Positions 1 through 8,282 of a stretch of 8,282 nt of DNA are shown in pieces. Below the pieces are notes generated by a model. It saw nothing but the letters and a program-made list of their open reading frames with translations. It made no database searches and was not told where the DNA came from. The position numbers were made by a program, and so were the translations under genes. Each line of letters starts with the position of its first letter. Position 1 is the stretch's first letter. Source of the DNA: a virus (Duplodnaviria > Heunggongvirae > Uroviricota > Caudoviricetes); the IMG/VR virus record IMGVR_UViG_2724678985_000018. The stretch is one strand, 5' to 3'.

Positions 1-26
1 GTAAGCGTAAACTGACCGCCGTATGT
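1..26. repeat. IS66 left terminal inverted repeat (IRL)
   Basis: GTAAGCG terminus, the conserved IS66-family end. Pairs imperfectly with the reverse complement of 2505-2532. Exact inner boundary is uncertain. Confidence 0.8.
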
Positions 27-85
27 AGCCATCAGACGAGAATTGGTAACTTAGACGCCCATCTGATATAGACGGACATCTAAGT

Positions 86-511
86 ATGGAATTACAGGAC
101 TGGCGAAAAGAACCTCGTAAAAACTATTCGAATGAATTCAAACTTCGTATGGTGGAACTGGCATCACAACCTGGAGCTTGTGTTGCACAGATTGCACGTG
201 AAAATGGCGTCAATGATAATGTTATTTTCAAATGGCTCAGGCTCTGGCAGAACGAAGGGCGTGTTTCGCGGCGTCTTCCGGTAACGACCTCTTCTGACAC
301 TGGCGTTGAATTATTACCTGTAGAAATAACGCCGGATGAGCAGAAAGAACCTGTGGCGGCCATTGCGCCGTCTTTATCCACTTCCACTCAGACCAGAGTC
401 AGTGCCAGTTCCTGCAAGGTGGAATTCCGTCACGGTAACATGACGCTGGAAAATCCATCGCCAGAGCTGCTCACGGTGTTGATCCGTGAACTGACCGGGA
501 GGGGAAGATGA
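86..511 (+). CDS. tnpA: IS66-family accessory protein OrfA (helix-turn-helix)
   Basis: 141 aa. N-terminal NYSNEFKLRMVELASQPGACVAQIARENGVNDNVIFKWL is the typical IS66 Orf1 helix-turn-helix segment. Stop overlaps the orfB start (ATGA). Confidence 0.85.
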   Translation: MELQDWRKEPRKNYSNEFKLRMVELASQPGACVAQIARENGVNDNVIFKWLRLWQNEGRVSRRLPVTTSSDTGVELLPVEITPDEQKEPVAAIAPSLSTSTQTRVSASSCKVEFRHGNMTLENPSPELLTVLIRELTGRGR

Positions 512-858
512 TCTCACTCCCATCAGGTACCCGTATCTGGCTCGTTGCCGGCGTTACCGATATGCGTAAATCCTTCAACGGACTGGGAGAACAGGTACAA
601 CATGTGCTGAATGATAATCCCTTCTCCGGTCACCTGTTTATCTTCCGTGGCCGACGGGGTGACACCGTCAAAATTCTTTGGGCTGATGCTGATGGTCTGT
701 GCCTGTTCACCAAACGCCTGGAGGAAGGCCAGTTTATCTGGCCTGCGGTACGTGACGGCAAGGTATCCATTACCCGCTCGCAACTGGCAATGCTCCTCGA
801 TAAGCTGGACTGGCGTCAGCCAAAAACATCCAGCCGTAACTCACTGACAATGTTGTAA
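508..858 (+). CDS. tnpB: IS66-family accessory protein OrfB (TnpB of IS66; unrelated to the IS200/IS605 RNA-guided TnpB)
   Basis: 116 aa starting MISLPSGTRIWLVAGVTDMRKSFNGLGEQV...HLFIFRGRRGDTVKILWADADGLCLFTKRLEEGQFIWP, the highly conserved IS66 Orf2 signature. Start is coupled to the orfA stop. Confidence 0.92.
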   Translation: MISLPSGTRIWLVAGVTDMRKSFNGLGEQVQHVLNDNPFSGHLFIFRGRRGDTVKILWADADGLCLFTKRLEEGQFIWPAVRDGKVSITRSQLAMLLDKLDWRQPKTSSRNSLTML

Positions 859-888
859 AAAACTCCTGACCGCATTATAAAAACGGTC

Positions 889-2502
889 ATGAGTCAGAAA
901 TACCTCATTCGCATCGCAGAGCTGGAAAGGTTGCTCTCTGAGCAGGCTGAAGCCCTCCGTCAGAAAGACCAGCAACTGAGTCTGGTTGAAGAGACGGAAG
1001 CCTTCCTGCGCTCTGCACTGACACGTGCCGAAGAAAAGATCGAAGAAGATGAACGGGAAATAGAACATCTGCGGGCTCAGATAGAAAAACTGCGCCGGAT
1101 GCTGTTCGGTACCCGTTCTGAAAAACTGCGTCGTGAAGTTGAACTGGCTGAGGCTCTGCTGAAACAACGTGAACAGGACAGCGATCGTTACAGTGGGCGG
1201 GAAGACGATCCTCAGGTTCCCCGCCAGTTGCGACAGTCGCGCCATCGTCGTCCGTTACCGGCACACCTTCCCCGTGAAATACACCGCCTGGAGCCAGAAG
1301 AAAGCTGTTGCCCGGAGTGTGGCGGTGAGCTGGATTATCTGGGAGAAGTCAGCGCTGAACAGCTGGAACTGGTGAGCAGTGCCCTGAAAGTGATCCGCAC
1401 AGAACGGGTAAAAAAAGCCTGTACAAAATGTGACTGTATTGTTGAAGCACCGGCGCCGTCCCGCCCGATAGAGCGTGGTATCGCGGGCCCCGGATTACTT
1501 GCCCGCGTGTTAACGGGAAAATACTGCGAACATCTGCCACTGTATCGTCAGAGTGAAATCTTTGCCCGCCAGGGTGTCGAACTGAGCCGGGCCTTACTCT
1601 CCAACTGGGTTGACGCGTGCTGCCAGTTAATGACACCGGTGAATGATGCCCTGTACCGTTATGTGATGAATACCCGCAAGCTTCACACTGACGACACACC
1701 GGTAAAGGTACTGGCACCGGGCCTGAAAAAGACGAAAACAGGGCGCATCTGGACGTATGTCCGGGATGATCGCAATGCGGGTTCGTCATCTCCTCCGGCG
1801 GTCTGGTTCGCGTACTCATCGAACCGGCAGGGGAAACACCCGGAGCAACACCTCCGCCCCTTCCGGGGTATCCTGCAGGCGGATGCGTTCACAGGTTATG
1901 ACAGGCTGTTCAGTGCAGAACGTGAAGGTAGTGCGCTGACAGAAGTTGCGTGCTGGGCTCATGCCCGGAGAAAAATCCACGATGTATACATCAGCAGCAA
2001 AAGTGCGACGGCAGAAGAAGCCCTGAAGCGAATCAGTGAACTGTACGCCATCGAGGATGAAATACGGGGATTACCAGAATCAGAGCGTCTTGCAGCCAGG
2101 CAGCAGCGAAGCAAAGCGTTACTGACGTCGCTGCATGAATGGATGGTGGAGAAGAATGGCACGCTGTCGAAAAAATCCAGACTGGGCGAAGCGTTCAGCT
2201 ATGTACTGAATCAGTGGGACGCCCTCTGTTATTACAGTGATGACGGTCTGGCGGAGGTGGACAATAACACAGCGGAAAGAGCGCTTCGTGCAGTCTGTCT
2301 CGGAAAGAAAAATTACGTGTTCTTCGGTAGCGATCACGGCGGCGAGCGTGGAGCACTGCTGTACGGGCTGAGCGGCACCTGCCGTCTGAACGGTATCGAT
2401 CCGGAAGCGTATCTGCGCCATATTCTGAGCGTACTGCCGGAATGGCCCTCCAACCGTGTTGACGAACTCCTGCCATGGAACGTAGTACTCACCAATAAAT
2501 AA
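889..2502 (+). CDS. tnpC: IS66-family transposase (TnpC; DDE type with N-terminal coiled coil and zinc-finger-like CxxC...CxxC)
   Basis: 537 aa. N-terminal heptad-rich region (LERLLSEQAEALRQKDQQL...IEHLRAQIEKLRRMLFG), then CPECGGEL...CTKCDC, then a large catalytic region. Size and architecture match IS66 transposases. Confidence 0.92.
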   Translation: MSQKYLIRIAELERLLSEQAEALRQKDQQLSLVEETEAFLRSALTRAEEKIEEDEREIEHLRAQIEKLRRMLFGTRSEKLRREVELAEALLKQREQDSDRYSGREDDPQVPRQLRQSRHRRPLPAHLPREIHRLEPEESCCPECGGELDYLGEVSAEQLELVSSALKVIRTERVKKACTKCDCIVEAPAPSRPIERGIAGPGLLARVLTGKYCEHLPLYRQSEIFARQGVELSRALLSNWVDACCQLMTPVNDALYRYVMNTRKLHTDDTPVKVLAPGLKKTKTGRIWTYVRDDRNAGSSSPPAVWFAYSSNRQGKHPEQHLRPFRGILQADAFTGYDRLFSAEREGSALTEVACWAHARRKIHDVYISSKSATAEEALKRISELYAIEDEIRGLPESERLAARQQRSKALLTSLHEWMVEKNGTLSKKSRLGEAFSYVLNQWDALCYYSDDGLAEVDNNTAERALRAVCLGKKNYVFFGSDHGGERGALLYGLSGTCRLNGIDPEAYLRHILSVLPEWPSNRVDELLPWNVVLTNK

Positions 2503-2504
2503 GC

Positions 2505-2532
2505 GTCAATACGGTGCTCCGTTGACGCTTAC
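2505..2532. repeat. IS66 right terminal inverted repeat (IRR), with an internal 9-bp hairpin
   Basis: Ends ...CGCTTAC at 2532, the reverse complement of the left-end GTAAGCG. AAGCGTCAA (2501-2509) and TTGACGCTT (2522-2530) are reverse complements of each other. Confidence 0.8.
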
Positions 2533-2670
2533 AAACATCGTGACGTTCCTTTGGGTGGGTGAGCCAACGCCCGGGAGCGATCTGCCCACAGAGAAAGTCA
2601 CACTGACCACTCCGTAAGCTCACCCCCGAAAGGCTCTGTGGTTGATATGCGCCGGGCGTGGCGCAGATAC

Positions 2671-2694
2671 AAAAAAGGCCCGCCGAAGCGAGCC
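2671..2694 (-). terminator. Rho-independent terminator downstream of the tRNA cluster
   Basis: Minus strand reads GGCTCGC-TTCG-GCGGGCC followed by TTTTTT. 7-bp GC-rich stem with one mismatch, tetraloop, U-tract. Lies 13 nt past the 3' end of the last tRNA. Confidence 0.6.
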
Positions 2695-2707
2695 TGGAAA
2701 ATAAGTG

Positions 2708-2784
2708 TGGCGCGTTGTAGTGGAGTCTAACCACTGACCGATTGCTTAGAAGGCAATTGCTCTGTCCGACTGAGCTAACAACGC
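2708..2784 (-). tRNA. tRNA-Arg (anticodon TCT)
   Basis: Manual cloverleaf from the reverse complement: GCGTTGT-TA-GCTC-AGTCGGACA-GAGC-A-ATTGC-CTTCTAA-GCAAT-CGGTC-AGTGG-TTAGACT-CCACT-ACAACGC-G-CCA. All four stems pair perfectly, CCA is encoded. The T-loop TTAGACT is non-canonical. Confidence 0.75.
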
Positions 2785-2797
2785 ATGATGCTGATAA

Positions 2798-2874
2798 TGG
2801 ACCGCCATCGGGGACTTGAACCCCGCGCAGCCAGCTTCGAAGGCTGGCGCTCTGTCCCGATGAGCTAATAGCGG
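2798..2874 (-). tRNA. tRNA-Arg (anticodon TCG), atypical acceptor end
   Basis: Manual cloverleaf: CCGCTAT-TA-GCTC-ATCGGGACA-GAGC-G-CCAGC-CTTCGAA-GCTGG-CTGCG-CGGGG-TTCAAGT-CCCCG-ATGGCGG-T-CCA. Canonical T-loop and perfect D, anticodon and T stems. Acceptor stem starts C1-G72 with a T at the discriminator position, both unusual. Confidence 0.6.
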
Positions 2875-2883
2875 TATGTAATA

Positions 2884-2959
2884 TGGTGGCCCTTGCTGGA
2901 TTTGAACCAGCGACCTGGCGATTATGAGTCGCTCGCTCTCACCACTGAGCTAAAGGACC
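2884..2959 (-). tRNA. tRNA with CAT anticodon, most likely tRNA-Ile2 (lysidine type) rather than Met
   Basis: Manual cloverleaf: GGTCCTT-TA-GCTC-AGTGGTGA-GAGC-G-AGCGA-CTCATAA-TCGCC-AGGTC-GCTGG-TTCAAAT-CCAGC-AAGGGCC-A-CCA. Closely resembles the E. coli ileX/ileY tRNA as I recall it, differing in acceptor and anticodon stems. One A-C mismatch at the base of the anticodon stem. Confidence 0.75.
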
Positions 2960-2987
2960 GAGCCAAAAAATAATAATCAGATGAAAA

Positions 2988-3701
2988 TCAATAATCAAGC
3001 CCTTGCCTGGATACATATCTGTCTGGCGGGAAGCCATAATAGCGGTGAAATACAGAAATAAAGTAGGACCTGCTTGAATAACCGCATTTTTCTGCTATAG
3101 CCTGTCCATATCCATGCCGGGAACATAACATATTTACAGCAACACGCATCCGCTCTTCCAGCAACAAGCGACTGAACATGCCCCCTTCATTTTTCAGTTT
3201 TGTCTTTAACAAACTCTCACTCATATGCAACTGTAGAGCAATCGCACCAAGCGTCCAGCTTGCTGATATATCTGTCTGAATTATCGCCCTGACTTTGGCA
3301 CTTATGCTGGATAAACATCCACTTAAAAACAATGACATCCGTTCATCTGTTTCAAACAGAGACAGGCAGGCCATCATAAGAAACATATCCGTGACCTCTC
3401 CGGAAAATCCCTGGCTGGTAATTAAAGCCGCAGCCAACGCAGGATTGTTGGGTTCCAGCAACAGGTAAAGCGGAATGTCAGTCAGACGAGTCCTCGTCAG
3501 CTTATGCTGACTTTCCAGATATTGACTTACGACGGATTCGCTTATATCGACAATTTTAACTTTGCCATAATGCATAAGGAAAAGCTCCCTGATGCATTTG
3601 GTGGCCAGAACGACTGAGCCTGGCTTAAGTGACAACGTATCCTTTTCAAGAAAAATATTAATTGGGGAGCAAACCATGATAACTGAACAGACAACAGCCA
3701 T
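2988..3701 (-). CDS. AraC/XylS-family transcriptional regulator (C-terminal double helix-turn-helix, N-terminal domain without a recognisable cupin)
   Basis: 237 aa. C-terminal WTLGAIALQLHMSESLLKTKLKNEGGMFSRLLLEERMRVAVNMLCSRHGYGQAIAEKCGYSSRSYFISVFHRYYGFPPDRY is a textbook AraC helix-turn-helix domain. Locus is visibly AT-rich compared with its flanks. True start may be the second Met (ATG at 3677). Confidence 0.8.
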   Translation of the reverse strand: MAVVCSVIMVCSPINIFLEKDTLSLKPGSVVLATKCIRELFLMHYGKVKIVDISESVVSQYLESQHKLTRTRLTDIPLYLLLEPNNPALAAALITSQGFSGEVTDMFLMMACLSLFETDERMSLFLSGCLSSISAKVRAIIQTDISASWTLGAIALQLHMSESLLKTKLKNEGGMFSRLLLEERMRVAVNMLCSRHGYGQAIAEKCGYSSRSYFISVFHRYYGFPPDRYVSRQGLDY

Positions 3702-3736
3702 TATAATTTTACTTTCATTAGCAATTGGTTAGCTCA

Positions 3737-3767
3737 ATTATAGCCCCAAAAGGTAAATTATCATCAA
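3737..3767 (-). promoter_or_regulatory. Candidate sigma70 promoter for the AraC-family gene
   Basis: Minus strand TTGATG (-35), 19-bp spacer, TATAAT (-10), about 35 nt upstream of the ATG at 3701. Spacer is longer than optimal. Confidence 0.3.
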
Positions 3768-3821
3768 CACATAAGCAAAGGACTGACAGGTGTCGCCCCC
3801 CCACCAGCCGCCCATTCACCA

Positions 3822-3849
3822 CAAATAAAAAGCCTTCAGGACTGAAGGC
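3822..3849 (-). terminator. Rho-independent terminator overlapping the 3' end of the 65-aa ORF
   Basis: Minus strand GCCTTCA-GTCC-TGAAGGC (perfect 7-bp stem) followed by TTTTTATTTG. The TGA stop of the upstream ORF lies inside the hairpin. Confidence 0.6.
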
Positions 3850-4033
3850 GTCTGTAACAACCGCACTGATAGTCTGCCAGACCCGCCATAACAAGCTGGG
3901 TCAGTATTAACTGGCAGCGTTCGCGTGAAAGGTAAGTATTCTGCGCAATCTCCCCGACTGTCGCCGGTTCGGTAACGCTTAATTCATTAAACACCACTCT
4001 GGCGGTTTCTGTCATATCCTGCTGTTTTAGCAT
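3836..4033 (-). CDS. Small hypothetical protein (65 aa), possible small DNA-binding protein
   Basis: MLKQQDMTETARVVFNELSVTEPATVGEIAQNTYLSRERCQLILTQLVMAGLADYQCGCYRRLQS. Co-directional with phage genes, followed immediately by a terminator. A weak AGGGAA lies about 9 nt upstream of the ATG. The ELSVTEPATVGEIAQ...LSRERCQLIL stretch suggests a helix-turn-helix or winged helix but I could not place it in a family. Confidence 0.45.
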   Translation of the reverse strand: MLKQQDMTETARVVFNELSVTEPATVGEIAQNTYLSRERCQLILTQLVMAGLADYQCGCYRRLQS

Positions 4034-4155
4034 GTCTTTTTTCCCTTTTGGTTAACGTGACATACCAATAACTCTTGTCCAAAAAGCCAGCAAGCAGAAA
4101 GACCGGTATTCGCAACCACCAGCGCATTTAACGCCCCGTGCCGTTTTTCAGTCAT

Positions 4156-4177
4156 AAAAAAACCCGCAAAAAGCGGG
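4156..4177 (-). terminator. Rho-independent terminator about 80 nt downstream of the Q-like gene (tR'-like position)
   Basis: Minus strand CCCGC-TTTTT-GCGGG followed by TTTTTTT (the + strand shows a 7-A run at 4156-4162). Sits between the Q-like gene and the downstream cargo, where lambdoid phages place the terminator that Q-modified polymerase reads through. Confidence 0.6.
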
Positions 4178-4256
4178 CTCTTTCAAATGTCCATGTCTGC
4201 TATTCGCCTCGCGGTACAGCTTTGCGAAGCGTACCGGAATTGAAGCAGTTTTTACG

Positions 4257-4823
4257 TCAAAAAGCAATAACTTTTTTATCTATACCAAAAGCCATAACCA
4301 TTGGTTTGTACAAAATAAATTCTGCCACCTTTAGCCAATGCTCAATGCGTCTTTCACAGGTTCTTAAACTCCATTCCGGATGTGCATCATTCAGCAGTTC
4401 AGCCATTTTGCGCTTAGTCATCCCCCGCCCCACATAACGCTGACTCAGAACATTGAGCAGCCCGGGATAACCTGCCAGTACTTCACCAATAACCCTGTCG
4501 ATTATTAACGCCTCTGAATCGGTACAATGTGCCAGCCAGCTTTTTTGATTGCCGTTGATCATATCCCGCAAAAAAGCCTCAAGTTCAGGTTTGTCCAGAC
4601 CCGCTTTTTTCATCCTCCGGAGCGCCTCGTTAATTGCCGTTTTTGTCAGCTTTTTAGAGGTCAGTAATTGGTTGAACATATTTCCCGTCTTACCGTCGCC
4701 AATATACGACCAACGCCCCCACATACGCAGTTTCCCCTGGATCCAGACACTTTCCAGCGTTTTCAGGCGTAAATGCTCACCGCTTTTGCCTGTAATTTCC
4801 GGGTATATCATATTTATGCTCAC
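4257..4823 (-). CDS. Putative late-gene antitermination protein (Q-like)
   Basis: 188 aa. Directly downstream of rusA with a 4-nt GTGA start/stop overlap, followed by an intrinsic terminator and then tRNAs and cargo. The segment LRMWGRWSYIGDGKTGNMFNQLLTSKKLTK resembles the WGAW...F.GL.TSK N-terminal segment I recall from phage 82/DLP12-type Q proteins. Annotated start is GTG at 4823; an alternative ATG is at 4811. Call rests mainly on synteny. Confidence 0.5.
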   Translation of the reverse strand: MSINMIYPEITGKSGEHLRLKTLESVWIQGKLRMWGRWSYIGDGKTGNMFNQLLTSKKLTKTAINEALRRMKKAGLDKPELEAFLRDMINGNQKSWLAHCTDSEALIIDRVIGEVLAGYPGLLNVLSQRYVGRGMTKRKMAELLNDAHPEWSLRTCERRIEHWLKVAEFILYKPMVMAFGIDKKVIAF

Positions 4824-5179
4824 TCACTTTCAATTTTGTAAATCTTCACGCCCAGCCGCCCACCAGAAACGAGCTGGCCGCGCACAATATTGATTTCATC
4901 AAACTGCTCGTCGTCTATGAGAAGTCCGGCATGCGTCAGCGCATCCAGTGGTGCTTTCAGGATATTGTCCAGGTCACGACGGCGCTTATCCGGTGGCTCT
5001 GCAATAATCTTTATCGCCAGCCTTCCGGACAGGTTTAATTTCAGCCGCTGCTGGCGAACAATAAGTGCCACATCCCGGCGATAACGCTCACCGGCTTTTG
5101 ATACAAAATATGTGCTGCCACGACGTCGCCAGTAGGTGTTCACCGTCGGCGGGTAAGGCAAAACAAACTCTATACGCAT
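4820..5179 (-). CDS. rusA: Holliday-junction resolvase RusA (crossover junction endodeoxyribonuclease)
   Basis: 119 aa with LPYPPTVNTYW...YRRDVA...PPDKRRRDLDNILKAPLDALTHAGLLIDDEQ...GGRLGVKI, matching the RusA pattern including the catalytic D-rich motifs. AAGAGG ribosome-binding site 7 nt upstream of the ATG. Confidence 0.88.
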   Translation of the reverse strand: MRIEFVLPYPPTVNTYWRRRGSTYFVSKAGERYRRDVALIVRQQRLKLNLSGRLAIKIIAEPPDKRRRDLDNILKAPLDALTHAGLLIDDEQFDEINIVRGQLVSGGRLGVKIYKIESE

Positions 5180-5191
5180 CAGTAACCTCTT

Positions 5192-6295
5192 TTACCCGAG
5201 CACGCCGGTTGCAAAGGCGTGATCAAGAAAACGAAAAATTAAATCAACCTGGGAACCATGCTTTTCTTCGAACGCCAGCGGATCCGCATGAAGCTCGTTG
5301 TGATGCTCCCGACACAGCGGTAGCGTGAAAATATCGTGGGATTTTGTTCCCATTCCGCCCTGACCATGACCAATCAGATGATGAGGATCGTCCGCTGGCT
5401 TACCACAACACGCACACGGCTGTGTCTTTACCCAGCGTGTGTATTTCTCATTTACCCAGCGGCGACGTTTAGGTCGTTTCATGAAGGATTCCGGAGACTC
5501 CGGATCAACGGCAATGCTGACCACCGTCTTTTCCTGTGGTGGGTTCTGTTGCTGGTGGGTGTGAGGCGGTAGCGCAATATTTTTTGTGCGCTGCTTCAGT
5601 ATGCTGGTGGCGGTCTGTTCTCCCGGTATGATGTCGCTTTCACGGTATACGGAGCGGATTTTTTCCGCCGGTAATCCCAGAGAGCGACGCGATACTGCCT
5701 CAGGTAATGCGTCCACCACCTGATTGCAGACTGCCCACCAGGATAATTCAGCCAGCGATAATTCCCGCTCCTGCGTGCCATTCATTACATGGCGTATGAC
5801 GTCAATCATCCAGGCTGTCAGATTTTGTTGAGTAAGTTGCTCAAGTGATTCGGAGGTCTGGTCGCGCAGCTGGTTGTCGCAGTGCCAGCACAACACCATT
5901 GCGCCAGCACCGTAACTGTGAATAACGGTTTCGCTGTGATGATAATCGCCGTGTGGCCACTGGCAGGATTTCACGTGACGTAATAACCAGTCAGACAGTG
6001 CACCAGCGCCGCCAGCTGCACGAATCACCCGCTCATCGCTGAAAAATGGCAGCAGTGATTTATCTTCCGCCAGCGGCTGGCGAACAGCAGGAACCGCTCC
6101 AGATGGCAGCGCCCGCATGTTTTTCGGTTCCGGCTCCACCAGCACCCTGCCGCGATGAAAAACTGGCAATGATTCACGACCGGGCTTAAGGACCACCAGC
6201 CCGAGTTCCGGAACCAGAACAGGTCGAAGTAATACCCGCACATTACCTCCAGACGCGCTGACGGTAGCAGGCATGTGTCCGTGGCAGATGTGCAC
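5192..6295 (-). CDS. DUF968-family phage protein with C-terminal HNH-like motif (YdfU-like)
   Basis: 367 aa from a GTG start. C-terminus CACCGKPADDPHHLIGHGQGGMGTKSHDIFTLPLCREHHNELHADPLAFEEKHGSQ is the Cys/His-rich signature I associate with Qin-prophage YdfU-type proteins. No Shine-Dalgarno before either the GTG (6295) or the first ATG (6274). The 5' end overlaps the preceding 90-aa ORF. Confidence 0.7.
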   Translation of the reverse strand: MHICHGHMPATVSASGGNVRVLLRPVLVPELGLVVLKPGRESLPVFHRGRVLVEPEPKNMRALPSGAVPAVRQPLAEDKSLLPFFSDERVIRAAGGAGALSDWLLRHVKSCQWPHGDYHHSETVIHSYGAGAMVLCWHCDNQLRDQTSESLEQLTQQNLTAWMIDVIRHVMNGTQERELSLAELSWWAVCNQVVDALPEAVSRRSLGLPAEKIRSVYRESDIIPGEQTATSILKQRTKNIALPPHTHQQQNPPQEKTVVSIAVDPESPESFMKRPKRRRWVNEKYTRWVKTQPCACCGKPADDPHHLIGHGQGGMGTKSHDIFTLPLCREHHNELHADPLAFEEKHGSQVDLIFRFLDHAFATGVLG

Positions 6296-6515
6296 GAACA
6301 GGAAGATATACAGAAACGGTCCAGGTCAGACGATCAGCGTTCAGACTCCGCTCCACACGGACACCGCGACGCAGATACGCCTCTTGAAGCATATCTGCCT
6401 CATCGATCGTACAGAACAGATAGTGAAACCAGCCATACTGAGGCGCACGAAAACGCCTCCCCTGCTTAATTTCCGGGTCGGCTTCAGAATTGTGGGATTT
6501 TATGTGTTGTGTCAT
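6243..6515 (-). CDS. Hypothetical protein (90 aa), overlapping the DUF968 gene start in a different frame
   Basis: MTQHIKSHNSEADPEIKQGRRFRAPQYGWFHYLFCTIDEADMLQEAYLRRGV... with a GGAG ribosome-binding site 6 nt upstream of the ATG and a candidate promoter upstream. May be an independent small gene or the frameshifted N-terminus of the downstream ORF. Confidence 0.45.
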   Translation of the reverse strand: MTQHIKSHNSEADPEIKQGRRFRAPQYGWFHYLFCTIDEADMLQEAYLRRGVRVERSLNADRLTWTVSVYLPVRAHLPRTHACYRQRVWR

Positions 6516-6564
6516 CGGATTCTCCGGTGACAGCAGGTGTCAGTTGTTCAGGCTGACTGCGCGA

Positions 6565-6593
6565 ATTGTAAGGCAATACGCCGGAATGTACAA
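6565..6593 (-). promoter_or_regulatory. Candidate sigma70 promoter for the 90-aa ORF / DUF968 operon
   Basis: Minus strand TTGTAC (-35), 17-bp spacer, TACAAT (-10), about 45 nt upstream of the ATG at 6515. Confidence 0.35.
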
Positions 6594-6618
6594 ACAGAAA
6601 ACCCGTCAGTAAGACGGG
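6590..6618 (-). terminator. Rho-independent terminator downstream of the YgiW-like gene
   Basis: Minus strand CCCGTC-TTACT-GACGGG followed by TTTTCTGTTTGT, beginning 19 nt after the TAA stop at 6637-6639. Confidence 0.6.
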
Positions 6619-6636
6619 CTTAACAAGCAGGGGCGG

Positions 6637-6981
6637 TTACTTTAATAATTTCAGTGCCTTTACATCAACTTCAACACTGCTCAGGTCTTTATCAATTTCA
6701 CCCTCAATTCTTACTTTGTCTTTCGGAGAAACATTCTGCCCGGCCCATACGCTGTCATCAATATCCGTGACAATTGTCCCGCTATTGTCACGAAACTCAT
6801 AACGTTCATCACCCACTTTTTTAACGATGCTCCCTTCAAGGATAACCCATGCATCATCCTTCAGTTCTTTTGCCTGCGCTACTGTTGAACGCTCTGCTTC
6901 TGGCCCCTGGAAACCACCCTGCTGTGCAAAAGCGCCAAAAGACACACCGGAAATAAGTGCTGCAATCAATACCTTTTTCAT
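6637..6981 (-). CDS. YgiW/YdeI-family (BOF, DUF388) periplasmic OB-fold protein with signal peptide
   Basis: 114 aa. N-terminal MKKVLIAALISGVSFGAFA looks like a signal peptide. The mature region (QQGGFQGP...DDAWVILEGSIVKKVGDERYEFRDNSGTIVTDIDDSVWAGQNVSPKDKVRIEGEIDKD...VEVDVK) follows the YgiW/YdeI pattern. AAAGAGGA ribosome-binding site upstream. Confidence 0.75.
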   Translation of the reverse strand: MKKVLIAALISGVSFGAFAQQGGFQGPEAERSTVAQAKELKDDAWVILEGSIVKKVGDERYEFRDNSGTIVTDIDDSVWAGQNVSPKDKVRIEGEIDKDLSSVEVDVKALKLLK

Positions 6982-7059
6982 TCATAGTCCTCTTTCAGAG
7001 ATGAACATTCAAACAGCATTTTCAGTATGGTAAAGCGCGGGTGCGTTGAGGATGCCTGA

Positions 7060-7100
7060 CACATCAGAGGTGGCGGGAGATTACTCCCCCGCCTGGTCTC
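7060..7100 (-). other. GC-rich stem-loop at the 3' end of the hok transcript
   Basis: Minus strand GGCGGGGGAG-TAAT-CTCCCGCC starting 8 nt after the hok stop. Not followed by a clean U-tract. Analogous in position to the 3' hairpin of plasmid R1 hok mRNA as I recall it. Confidence 0.4.
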
Positions 7101-7256
7101 TTACTTCTCAGATTCGTAGTCTACGAAGACAGCGACCTCCGTCTGACCGGTTCGGATTCGCACCTCGCAGAGGTCTTTCCTCGTTACCAGTGCCGTCACT
7201 ATGACGGTTAAACAGATGACGATCAGGGCGATTAACATCGCCTTTTGCTGCTTCAT
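7101..7256 (-). CDS. hok: Hok/Gef-family type I toxin (membrane peptide, 51 aa)
   Basis: MKQQKAMLIALIVICLTVIVTALVTRKDLCEVRIRTGQTEVAVFVDYESEK is near-identical to E. coli HokD/RelF-type sequences as I recall them. GGAG ribosome-binding site upstream. The six-frame track extends this frame to an upstream ATG at 7313 (70 aa), but the conserved Hok start is the internal Met. Confidence 0.9.
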   Translation of the reverse strand: MKQQKAMLIALIVICLTVIVTALVTRKDLCEVRIRTGQTEVAVFVDYESEK

Positions 7257-7440
7257 AGCCTGCTTCTCCTTGCCTTTCGGCACGTAAGAGGCTAACCTAC
7301 ATGTGTTCAGCATGGATTGAGCCTCAGATTAATGTTAAGCGTCTTGCAGGACGCGTAATGTTAACTGGGGCTTTTCTCTATCTGCCGTTGGTGTTCATGC
7401 CCGAGGCAGATAGCCTCAAGCACCCGCTGCAATTCTACTT
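7257..7440 (-). promoter_or_regulatory. hok mRNA leader (expected to contain the mok start region and the Sok antisense-RNA target; sok would be encoded on the + strand here)
   Basis: Minus strand contains GCTTGAGGCTATCTGCCTC and TAGCCTCTTACGTGCCGAAAGGCAAGGAGAAGCAGGCTATG, which resemble the 5' end and the region just upstream of the start codon of plasmid R1 hok mRNA as I recall them. Candidate -10 TAGAAT just upstream of the presumed 5' end. Exact sok coordinates not determined. Confidence 0.45.
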
Positions 7441-7546
7441 AACTATCCTTTTCCCGCAAACCGTTTTTATCCCCAGCGGCAAATCGAATACTCCACCAGC
7501 GCCACCGCCATCGCAATTCCTACCGTTGTGAATGCTTCAGGCCAGG

Positions 7547-8188
7547 TCATTGATTCACCTCCTGCGGCGGTTCTGGTAGCGACATCCAGTGGGTTGCTTG
7601 CCTAAGATCATTACCCGGACTAACTGCTATACCTCCGCGCCGGAACGTGCCTCCGAGATAGCGTGCGGAATATATTAATGGCCCAGCCTCGCTATCGATA
7701 TTCATCGAAATAAGCACGTTCTGGCTCTTTTCAGGCATTCGCTCAGTACAGCTTATCCAGCCATCCAGAGTTATCGGAGATCTGGTTGACGTTTCCGAGA
7801 TTTCCCGAAAATTGTTGGTTGACGAATTCTTATTTTCCCGAAAGTTTCCGGCCTGAAGCATGGCGACGCGGCAGGCGTTCCAGCCATCAGCATATGTTTT
7901 AGTTACACCGTCGAGATGGCAGGTAAGCAAATCCATTTCATCAGGCACTACCATTGCTATCGGCTCTGCTTCCAGTGATGCCAGCGCGATACGAAACACA
8001 TTAGCCAGCAGGCTGTCTGAAGACTTGTTATCGTGCGCCGAGTCGCTCAGGAAGCCTGTGATGTATGATTTAATCTCCGCGCGTTCTCTGGTAATAGTGC
8101 TCATATCAGTTTGAACCGCCCAGGGTGTCCTGGAGAGTGTTTTATCTGTGAAATCAGGCTGCCAGATCATCGTTTCCGATGGAAGCAT
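7547..8188 (-). CDS. Phage protein with C-terminal DUF551-like domain
   Basis: 213 aa. C-terminus WISCTERMPEKSQNVLISMNIDSEAGPLIYSARYLGGTFRRGGIAVSPGNDLRQATHWMSLPEPP fits the DUF551 pattern (W...LP...HWM.LPEPP) as I recall it. Contains an internal repeat NFRENKNSSTNNFREISE. No clear Shine-Dalgarno before the first ATG; the start could be Met-7. Confidence 0.5.
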   Translation of the reverse strand: MLPSETMIWQPDFTDKTLSRTPWAVQTDMSTITRERAEIKSYITGFLSDSAHDNKSSDSLLANVFRIALASLEAEPIAMVVPDEMDLLTCHLDGVTKTYADGWNACRVAMLQAGNFRENKNSSTNNFREISETSTRSPITLDGWISCTERMPEKSQNVLISMNIDSEAGPLIYSARYLGGTFRRGGIAVSPGNDLRQATHWMSLPEPPQEVNQ

Positions 8189-8282
8189 AATAAGCTTTTT
8201 CTGCTTATGCCGGAGGAGTATGGCCCAGCCTTCACAGCAATCGTTGATTGTTATACCAATCCACCCACGTTAGTATGGCCAG

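Follow-up and report, generated by a model that had tools for sequence, protein, structure and literature searches.

An IS66-family insertion sequence lies in prophage DNA directly downstream of a ribosome-binding site and an ATG, which raises the question of which gene these signals belonged to and what the insertion did to it. We addressed this question with the whole stretch of 8,282 nucleotides in which the junction was noticed (hereafter the window), with matching bacterial chromosomes that extend beyond it, and with relatives in which the site is uninterrupted.

The IS66-family element and its right junction

The left part of the window is a complete insertion sequence, made up as follows:

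Positions 1..2532, plus strand: complete IS66-family insertion sequence of 2,532 bp, with an ISEc47-family transposase according to PGAP
Positions 86-511, plus strand: tnpA (Pfam HTH_Tnp_1)
Positions 508-858, plus strand: tnpB (Pfam TnpB_IS66, 1.1e-36)
Positions 889-2502, plus strand: IS66 DDE transposase of 537 aa (Pfam DDE_Tnp_IS66, 5.4e-97; NCBIfam transpos_IS66)
Positions ~1-24 and ~2509-2532: left and right terminal inverted repeats (IRL and IRR)

The transposase scores 447 bits against NCBIfam transpos_IS66 (cutoff 180) and additionally contains the Pfam domains zf-IS66, LZ_Tnp_IS66, and DDE_Tnp_IS66_C. Upstream of it lie tnpA and tnpB, whose reading frames overlap by 4 nt. The two terminal repeats are imperfect, with 20 of 24 positions identical, and both open with GTAAGCGT. 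Terminal inverted repeats beginning GTAAGCG are a trait of the IS66 family in ISfinder descriptions, and 8-bp target duplications are textbook for its members. All four features by which we tested membership in the family are present here, namely the DDE transposase, the tnpA/tnpB pair, the inverted repeats, and the 8-bp duplication described below. The tnpA-tnpB-tnpC layout, the GTAAGCG ends, and the 8-bp duplication are shared with ISEc8/ISEc47-like elements of EHEC, from which this element is no different in mechanism; the landing site across a start codon is its only particular feature. Stx2a phages with IS elements between stx and nanS-p have been described, and an ISEc8-like (IS66-family) element is among these (PMC10462455).

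At the right end of the element, the following features are found:

Positions 2551..2547, minus strand: AAGGA, the native Shine-Dalgarno sequence of a TerB-family gene, now orphaned, with an 8-nt spacer to the ATG
Positions 2538..2536 and 2535..2533, minus strand: orphan ATG and the following TTT; the last base of the element is 2532
Positions 2533..2540, minus strand: promoter-proximal copy of the target duplication, CGATGTTT, with the second copy immediately left of position 1
Positions 2506..2538, minus strand: chimeric 10-codon ORF, MFVSVNGAPY*, opened by the orphan start

Just past the right end of the element the plus strand of the window reads AAACATCGTGACGTTCCTTTGG, and the minus strand reads CCAAAGGAACGTCACG-ATG-TTT before it enters the element at GTAAGCG. 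Over positions 2560..2495 the minus strand is ACCCACCCAAAGGAACGTCACGATGTTT followed across the junction by GTAAGCGTCAACGGAGCACCGTATTGACGCTTATTTAT, so that AAGGA-ACGTCACG-ATG-TTT runs into the right inverted repeat. A preliminary description, made from the window alone, had pointed to a ribosome-binding site and start codon with only two codons left before the element, and its positions and reading on the minus strand are confirmed. The orphan AAGGA is properly spaced and forms a duplex of -5.6 kcal/mol with the anti-Shine-Dalgarno sequence. Codons 1-2 of MFVSVNGAPY* belong to the TerB-family gene, while codons 3-10 and the stop (2508..2506) are supplied by the right inverted repeat. When the segment from -35 to +35 is folded, the orphan start gives -17.2 kcal/mol versus -10.0 for the native context. 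The right end of the element also has a hairpin of its own at window positions 2500-2531, a 10-bp inverted repeat (TAAGCGTCAA / TTGACGCTTA) with a 12-nt loop, which overlaps the stop codon of the transposase. On the late strand of the phage, codons 3-10 of the orphan mini-ORF are folded into it.

The target duplication and the gene whose start it spans

Window positions 1-8112 are 100% identical to many chromosomes of EHEC O111:H8/H-/NM, including E2863 and the reference strain 11128. We used E2863 (locus L001, in which a position equals 9001 minus the window position) to read past position 1, and strain UTAK-23 (locus L002) as an uninterrupted relative. Past the left end of the element, E2863 continues with CGATGTTTGGAATCTTCAAAAAG..., and the 8-bp sequence CGATGTTT (AAACATCG on the plus strand of the window) is found on both flanks, at L001 6461-6468 and 9001-9008. 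The IS-free L002 has a single copy and reads ...AAAGGAACGTCACGATGTTTGGAATCTTC... at this site. After removal in silico of the element and one duplication copy, L001 aligns colinearly with L002; the 5 mismatches over 900 bp all lie away from the junction. The target duplication that had been predicted beside the left repeat is thus present in the matching O111 genomes, and joining the two flanks, as the preliminary description had proposed, regains an uninterrupted 143-codon ORF colinear with IS-free relatives.

The gene immediately left of position 1 is this 143-codon ORF (L001 9003-9434), which PGAP annotates as "tellurite resistance TerB family protein" WP_000466957.1. L002 carries the same accession starting at the same ATG, and the site that relatives were to show as coding or non-coding is annotated in them as the start of a TerB-family protein. 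The IS-adjacent ORF and its uninterrupted counterpart encode identical proteins and match at 430 of 432 nt. The 8-bp duplication covers -2 to +6 of the gene, so that ATG-TTT is present twice. The proposal that the element had inserted just inside the 5' end of a cargo gene, with the rest of the gene beyond the window, holds in that the insertion lies two codons in and the remainder does lie outside; the gene is not truncated, as the ORF was regenerated.

Several observations bear on whether this ATG is a true start. The TerB-like protein matches Pfam TerB (PF05099) with 60.2 bits (cutoff 24.4) over residues 26-138, and PHROG 632 ("tellurite resistance", moron category) at 1.7e-69 over 1-143 of the 143-position profile. 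A tblastn search of 50,697 phage records returned 130 homologues, all with at least 80% query coverage, and in most of the matches listed, including those to P1-like phages, D6, jumbo Erwinia phages, and Evi, the alignment begins at residue 1. Identities are ~42% to P1-like TciA, ~68% to the jumbo Erwinia phages, and 100% to phage Evi. In a DNA alignment of relatives that are 86-99% identical, the AAAGGAA-N-ATG block is kept in four intact sequences, and one decayed remnant has AAAGA for the Shine-Dalgarno sequence and ATA for the start. The profile matches, the alignments from residue 1, and the conserved Shine-Dalgarno sequence and ATG indicate that the orphan signals are the true, conserved start of the TerB-family gene.

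The next gene encodes a 55-aa hydrophobic DUF3927/TciB-like protein (PHROG 1470, TciB-like). Its GTG start overlaps the stop of the TerB-like gene by 4 nt as GTGA (L001 9431-9434), which suggests translational coupling of the two. A TerB-domain gene followed by a small hydrophobic TciB-like/DUF3927 gene is also the arrangement of tciA-tciB in phage P1, while here the pair lies in the late operon of a lambdoid prophage and is presumably Q-dependent. In P1, tciA and tciB behaved as nonessential accessory genes in a CRISPRi screen, and their label (tellurite/colicin resistance, inhibition of cell division) is a putative function (PMC10695390). A role of the TerB-like gene in tellurite or colicin resistance or in cell division is likewise putative and derives from the annotation label only. 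PADLOC defense models gave a single sub-threshold match (E = 0.0035) among the TerB-like, DUF3927, and AraC-like proteins of this prophage, and a defense-system assignment for them is unsupported.

Two simpler readings of the junction can be weighed at this point. Since the window ends at the left end of the element, simple truncation, with two codons left in place and a distal part reduced to a startless pseudogene fragment, is the natural reading of the window alone. The duplication copy past the left end restores an in-frame ATG-TTT, however, and the distal ORF has all 143 codons and the same accession as in IS-free genomes; this refutes the reading, and we give it almost no credence. Equally little weight falls on the idea that the signals are a chance motif in noncoding DNA or that two IS copies recombined to form the junction. 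AAGGA-N8-ATG is admittedly short, and the O111 genomes hold several copies of the IS66-family element, at 4-7 places per genome. Against a chance motif stands a conserved gene start found in 1,094 genomes, and inter-IS recombination is refuted by the identical 8-bp repeats and the flanks colinear with IS-free relatives, from which we conclude that the insertion is a simple transposition event.

The late-operon slot between the tRNA genes and the lysis cassette

Toward the right, the phage DNA next to the element contains the following features:

Positions 2695..2676 with a T-run to 2670, minus strand: G+C-rich hairpin resembling an intrinsic terminator (L001 6306-6325 plus TTTTTT)
Positions 2708..2959, minus strand: three tRNA genes (CAT, Arg-TCG, Arg-TCT), in the order ileZ-argN-argO of 933W
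Positions 4257..4811 (PGAP coordinates), minus strand: Q-like late antiterminator of the DUF1133 type (PHROG 753, "anti-termination protein Q-like", 1.2e-80)

The prophage gene order is Q-like (DUF1133), a small ORF, an AraC/YdeO-like regulator, tRNA-Ile/Arg/Arg, the terminator, and the element, followed by the TerB-like gene, DUF3927, an SASA/nanS-p-like esterase, holin, lysozyme, head and tail genes, and nleC. The orphan ATG had been placed about 140 nt past the tRNA-cluster terminator, and we measure about 133-138 nt. A comparison with 933W (Q, pR', ileZ-argN-argO, terminator, stx2AB, a nanS-p/yjhS homologue, S) shows a shared gene order: the tRNAs are 93% identical, the terminator directly follows the last tRNA, and an esterase and a holin lie downstream. 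The hairpin after the tRNAs corresponds to the "terminator upstream of the stx genes" in the 933W annotation. In 933W, stx2A begins 54 nt past this terminator, while here the TerB-like gene and DUF3927 take the place of stx; a Psr-like AraC regulator additionally stands between Q and the tRNAs, and the Q protein is of the DUF1133 type. In the isolated phage Evi, Q and S likewise flank a TerB-like and DUF3927 pair, identical to the one here. A position between the tRNAs/terminator and the esterase/lysis cassette is found in L001, L002, and L005 when these are compared with 933W and Evi. The suggestion that this is the slot in which related lambdoid phages carry stx or other cargo is therefore borne out, with stx2AB occupying it in 933W.

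The Q-like gene is the presumed source of an antiterminated transcript that would run through the tRNAs, the terminator, the element, and the TerB-like gene. A consensus scan found no promoter between the tRNA terminator and the ATG, which fits transcription within a Q-antiterminated late operon, and we infer that the TerB-like pair is transcribed in this way. The alternative of the TerB-like gene as an independently transcribed moron was rejected for want of a promoter-like site in this interval. Just upstream of the CAT tRNA, at L001 6003-6031, there is a promoter-like TTGATT-17-TATTAT in the position of the putative pT of the 933W annotation. The CAT tRNA itself (2884-2959, minus strand) is called "Met" by ARAGORN and tRNA-Ile (ileZ) by PGAP and the 933W annotation; ileZ-type CAT tRNAs read AUA after modification of the anticodon.

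When the whole window was compared with Rfam at E <= 0.1, no match fell in or near positions 2495-2700. The matches were the three tRNAs, sok, and a sub-threshold Plastid-ycf2 (32.2 versus a gathering cutoff of 65.7 bits) over a tRNA on the opposite strand. The sections consulted of the 2026 HnrS paper give no sequence or position that would place the HnrS sRNA in the spacer between terminator and ATG. The sok antitoxin RNA (7251-7425, minus strand; 113.5 bits, E = 6e-26) adjoins a Hok/Gef-family gene, and from sequence similarity the two are assigned to a hok/sok type I toxin-antitoxin module in the early region of the prophage.

The regulator between the Q-like gene and the tRNAs (2988-3701, minus strand) is a 237-aa AraC-family protein. 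The full length of the protein matches PHROG 1450, and its best NCBIfam similarities, to YdeO and GadX, are below cutoff. It is reminiscent of PsrA/PsrB, the secretion regulators that O157 prophages encode and that are found in effector- and Pch-carrying prophages. Besides nleC, this prophage carries a PerC-family gene.

Predicted expression of the displaced gene and distribution in O111

As judged from its sequence, the insertion took away the ribosome-binding site and the direct upstream transcription link of the TerB-like gene and no coding sequence. The new 5' leader of the distal ORF is the left end of the element, ...TACGGCGGTCAGTTTACGCTTACCG-ATG, with ..GGCGGTCAGTTTACGCTTACCG directly before the ATG. 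The only anti-Shine-Dalgarno complement in this leader is GGCGG at 17 nt from the ATG, too distant to function, versus the native AAGGA at 8 nt, and a search for anti-Shine-Dalgarno duplexes found no replacement at 5-13 nt. The TerB-like protein has no internal Met, and the ORF list contains no upstream ORF placed for translational coupling to the distal ATG. Since there is no Shine-Dalgarno sequence at 5-10 nt, no internal Met, and no coupling ORF, we infer that translation of the IS-adjacent copy should be strongly reduced. Expression of the DUF3927/TciB-like gene would probably fall too, via the likely translational coupling. Counting against such a reduction, initiation independent of a Shine-Dalgarno sequence gives low to moderate levels in E. 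coli.

We consider it very probable that this locus records an IS66 insertion spanning a start codon, which left the ORF intact, lowered its translation, is clonal, and struck a redundant gene. The observed junctions give the structure, and the effect on expression is predicted from the signals described above. The sequence shows the steps of the insertion itself. In a lambda-like prophage of EHEC O111 that carries NleC, an IS66-family element entered the cargo slot of the late operon at a staggered 8-bp target, CGATGTTT, in a TerB-family (P1 TciA-like) gene, and the target was duplicated on repair. One copy has stayed behind the native Shine-Dalgarno sequence, opening a 10-codon dead-end ORF that terminates in the right repeat of the element, and the other, after the left end, provides ATG-TTT to the remaining 141 codons and thereby the full 143-codon ORF. 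Transcription would reach the TerB-like gene only by Q-antiterminated read-through of the 2.5-kb element in antisense. The event was probably one insertion, neutral or nearly so, that has been passed on by clonal descent within O111, with intact paralogues in other prophages of the same genomes making a loss redundant.

A different outcome would be that the element rewires the gene, with an outward promoter or a Shine-Dalgarno-independent start in its left end driving the TerB-family/TciB-like pair, perhaps in lysogens and not solely in lytic growth. All 44 genomes that contain the whole of a 660-bp query retain the ORF and its ATG unchanged, the new start folds with little more stability than the native one (-12.4 versus -10.0 kcal/mol), and the element has one weak promoter-like match on the correct strand (9/12, L001 8361-8390). 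Such preservation would be expected in a recent clone regardless, however, no Shine-Dalgarno sequence lies 5-13 nt from the ATG, and the promoter-like match is the only one on this strand, scores low, and lies ~610 nt upstream of the terB-like ATG. The 5 promoter-like matches found are within the 2.6 +/- 1.6 expected by chance, and the scan, a crude consensus search that an outward promoter at the IS end might escape, found none on the correct strand near the left end. We regard rewiring as unlikely. Its stronger form, in which the left end serves as a portable leader or promoter that frees the TerB-like/TciB-like pair from Q control and perhaps permits weak Shine-Dalgarno-independent expression in lysogens, is more improbable still, and our analysis turned up no evidence in its favor. 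Were it true, a lytic-phase moron would have become a lysogenic-conversion gene in the O111 clone, and start-spanning target duplications would be a recurring route by which IS elements swap expression signals and leave coding sequence untouched.

Of 5,426 complete E. coli genomes, 46 contain the right junction and 44 the left. Wherever a listed match has a serotype label, it reads O111 (H8, H-, NM, and in one case H2), which argues for one event and clonal inheritance. The 660-bp query, comprising the IS end, the TerB-like gene, and DUF3927, is 100% identical, with no sign of decay, in the 44 genomes containing all of it; absence of decay is uninformative in a young clone and is no support for inactivation either. 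Among the 44 full-length left junctions, no O111 assembly lacks CGATGTTT or the TerB-family gene left of the element. The uninterrupted site occurs in 1,094 of the 5,426 genomes, in which its copy number has a median of 2 and a maximum of 8. Some O111 strains, for example 2013C-4361 and 2010C-3053, have the interrupted copy together with a 100%-identical uninterrupted copy elsewhere, so any loss of function would be redundant in the same genome.

This is an ordinary IS insertion that departs in nothing from known kinds and is already in public genomes, the locus having been public in O111 since strain 11128 was sequenced. Its biological weight is small, as a nonessential accessory gene with intact paralogues in the same genome was hit. 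It does expose a blind spot of annotation for genes deprived of their ribosome-binding site alone: since the ORF regained a start codon from the target duplication, PGAP treats it as intact and gives it the accession of the uninterrupted copies, with no pseudogene flag, and presence/absence or pangenome analyses count as functional a copy that probably has no ribosome-binding site. Lying ahead of the lysis and morphogenesis genes in the late operon, the element could also affect the inducibility of this NleC-carrying prophage.

Two further observations concern the matching genomes. In NZ_CP077562.1 (O111:H8 strain 9662) the right junction is present and the left-junction query matches only from position 45 of 660, the outer part of the IS left end being altered or interrupted; this genome probably accounts for one of the two by which the junction counts, 46 and 44, differ. 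The last 170 bases of the window (8113-8282) diverge from all O111 genomes that otherwise match at 100%, and the arrangement at 8000-8282 is found nowhere in the complete-genome collection with at least 80% coverage. At ~93% identity, these bases match the end of IS1203-family (IS3) elements, and the source strain seems to carry a further insertion of the IS3 family at the boundary of its DUF4014 and DUF551 genes.
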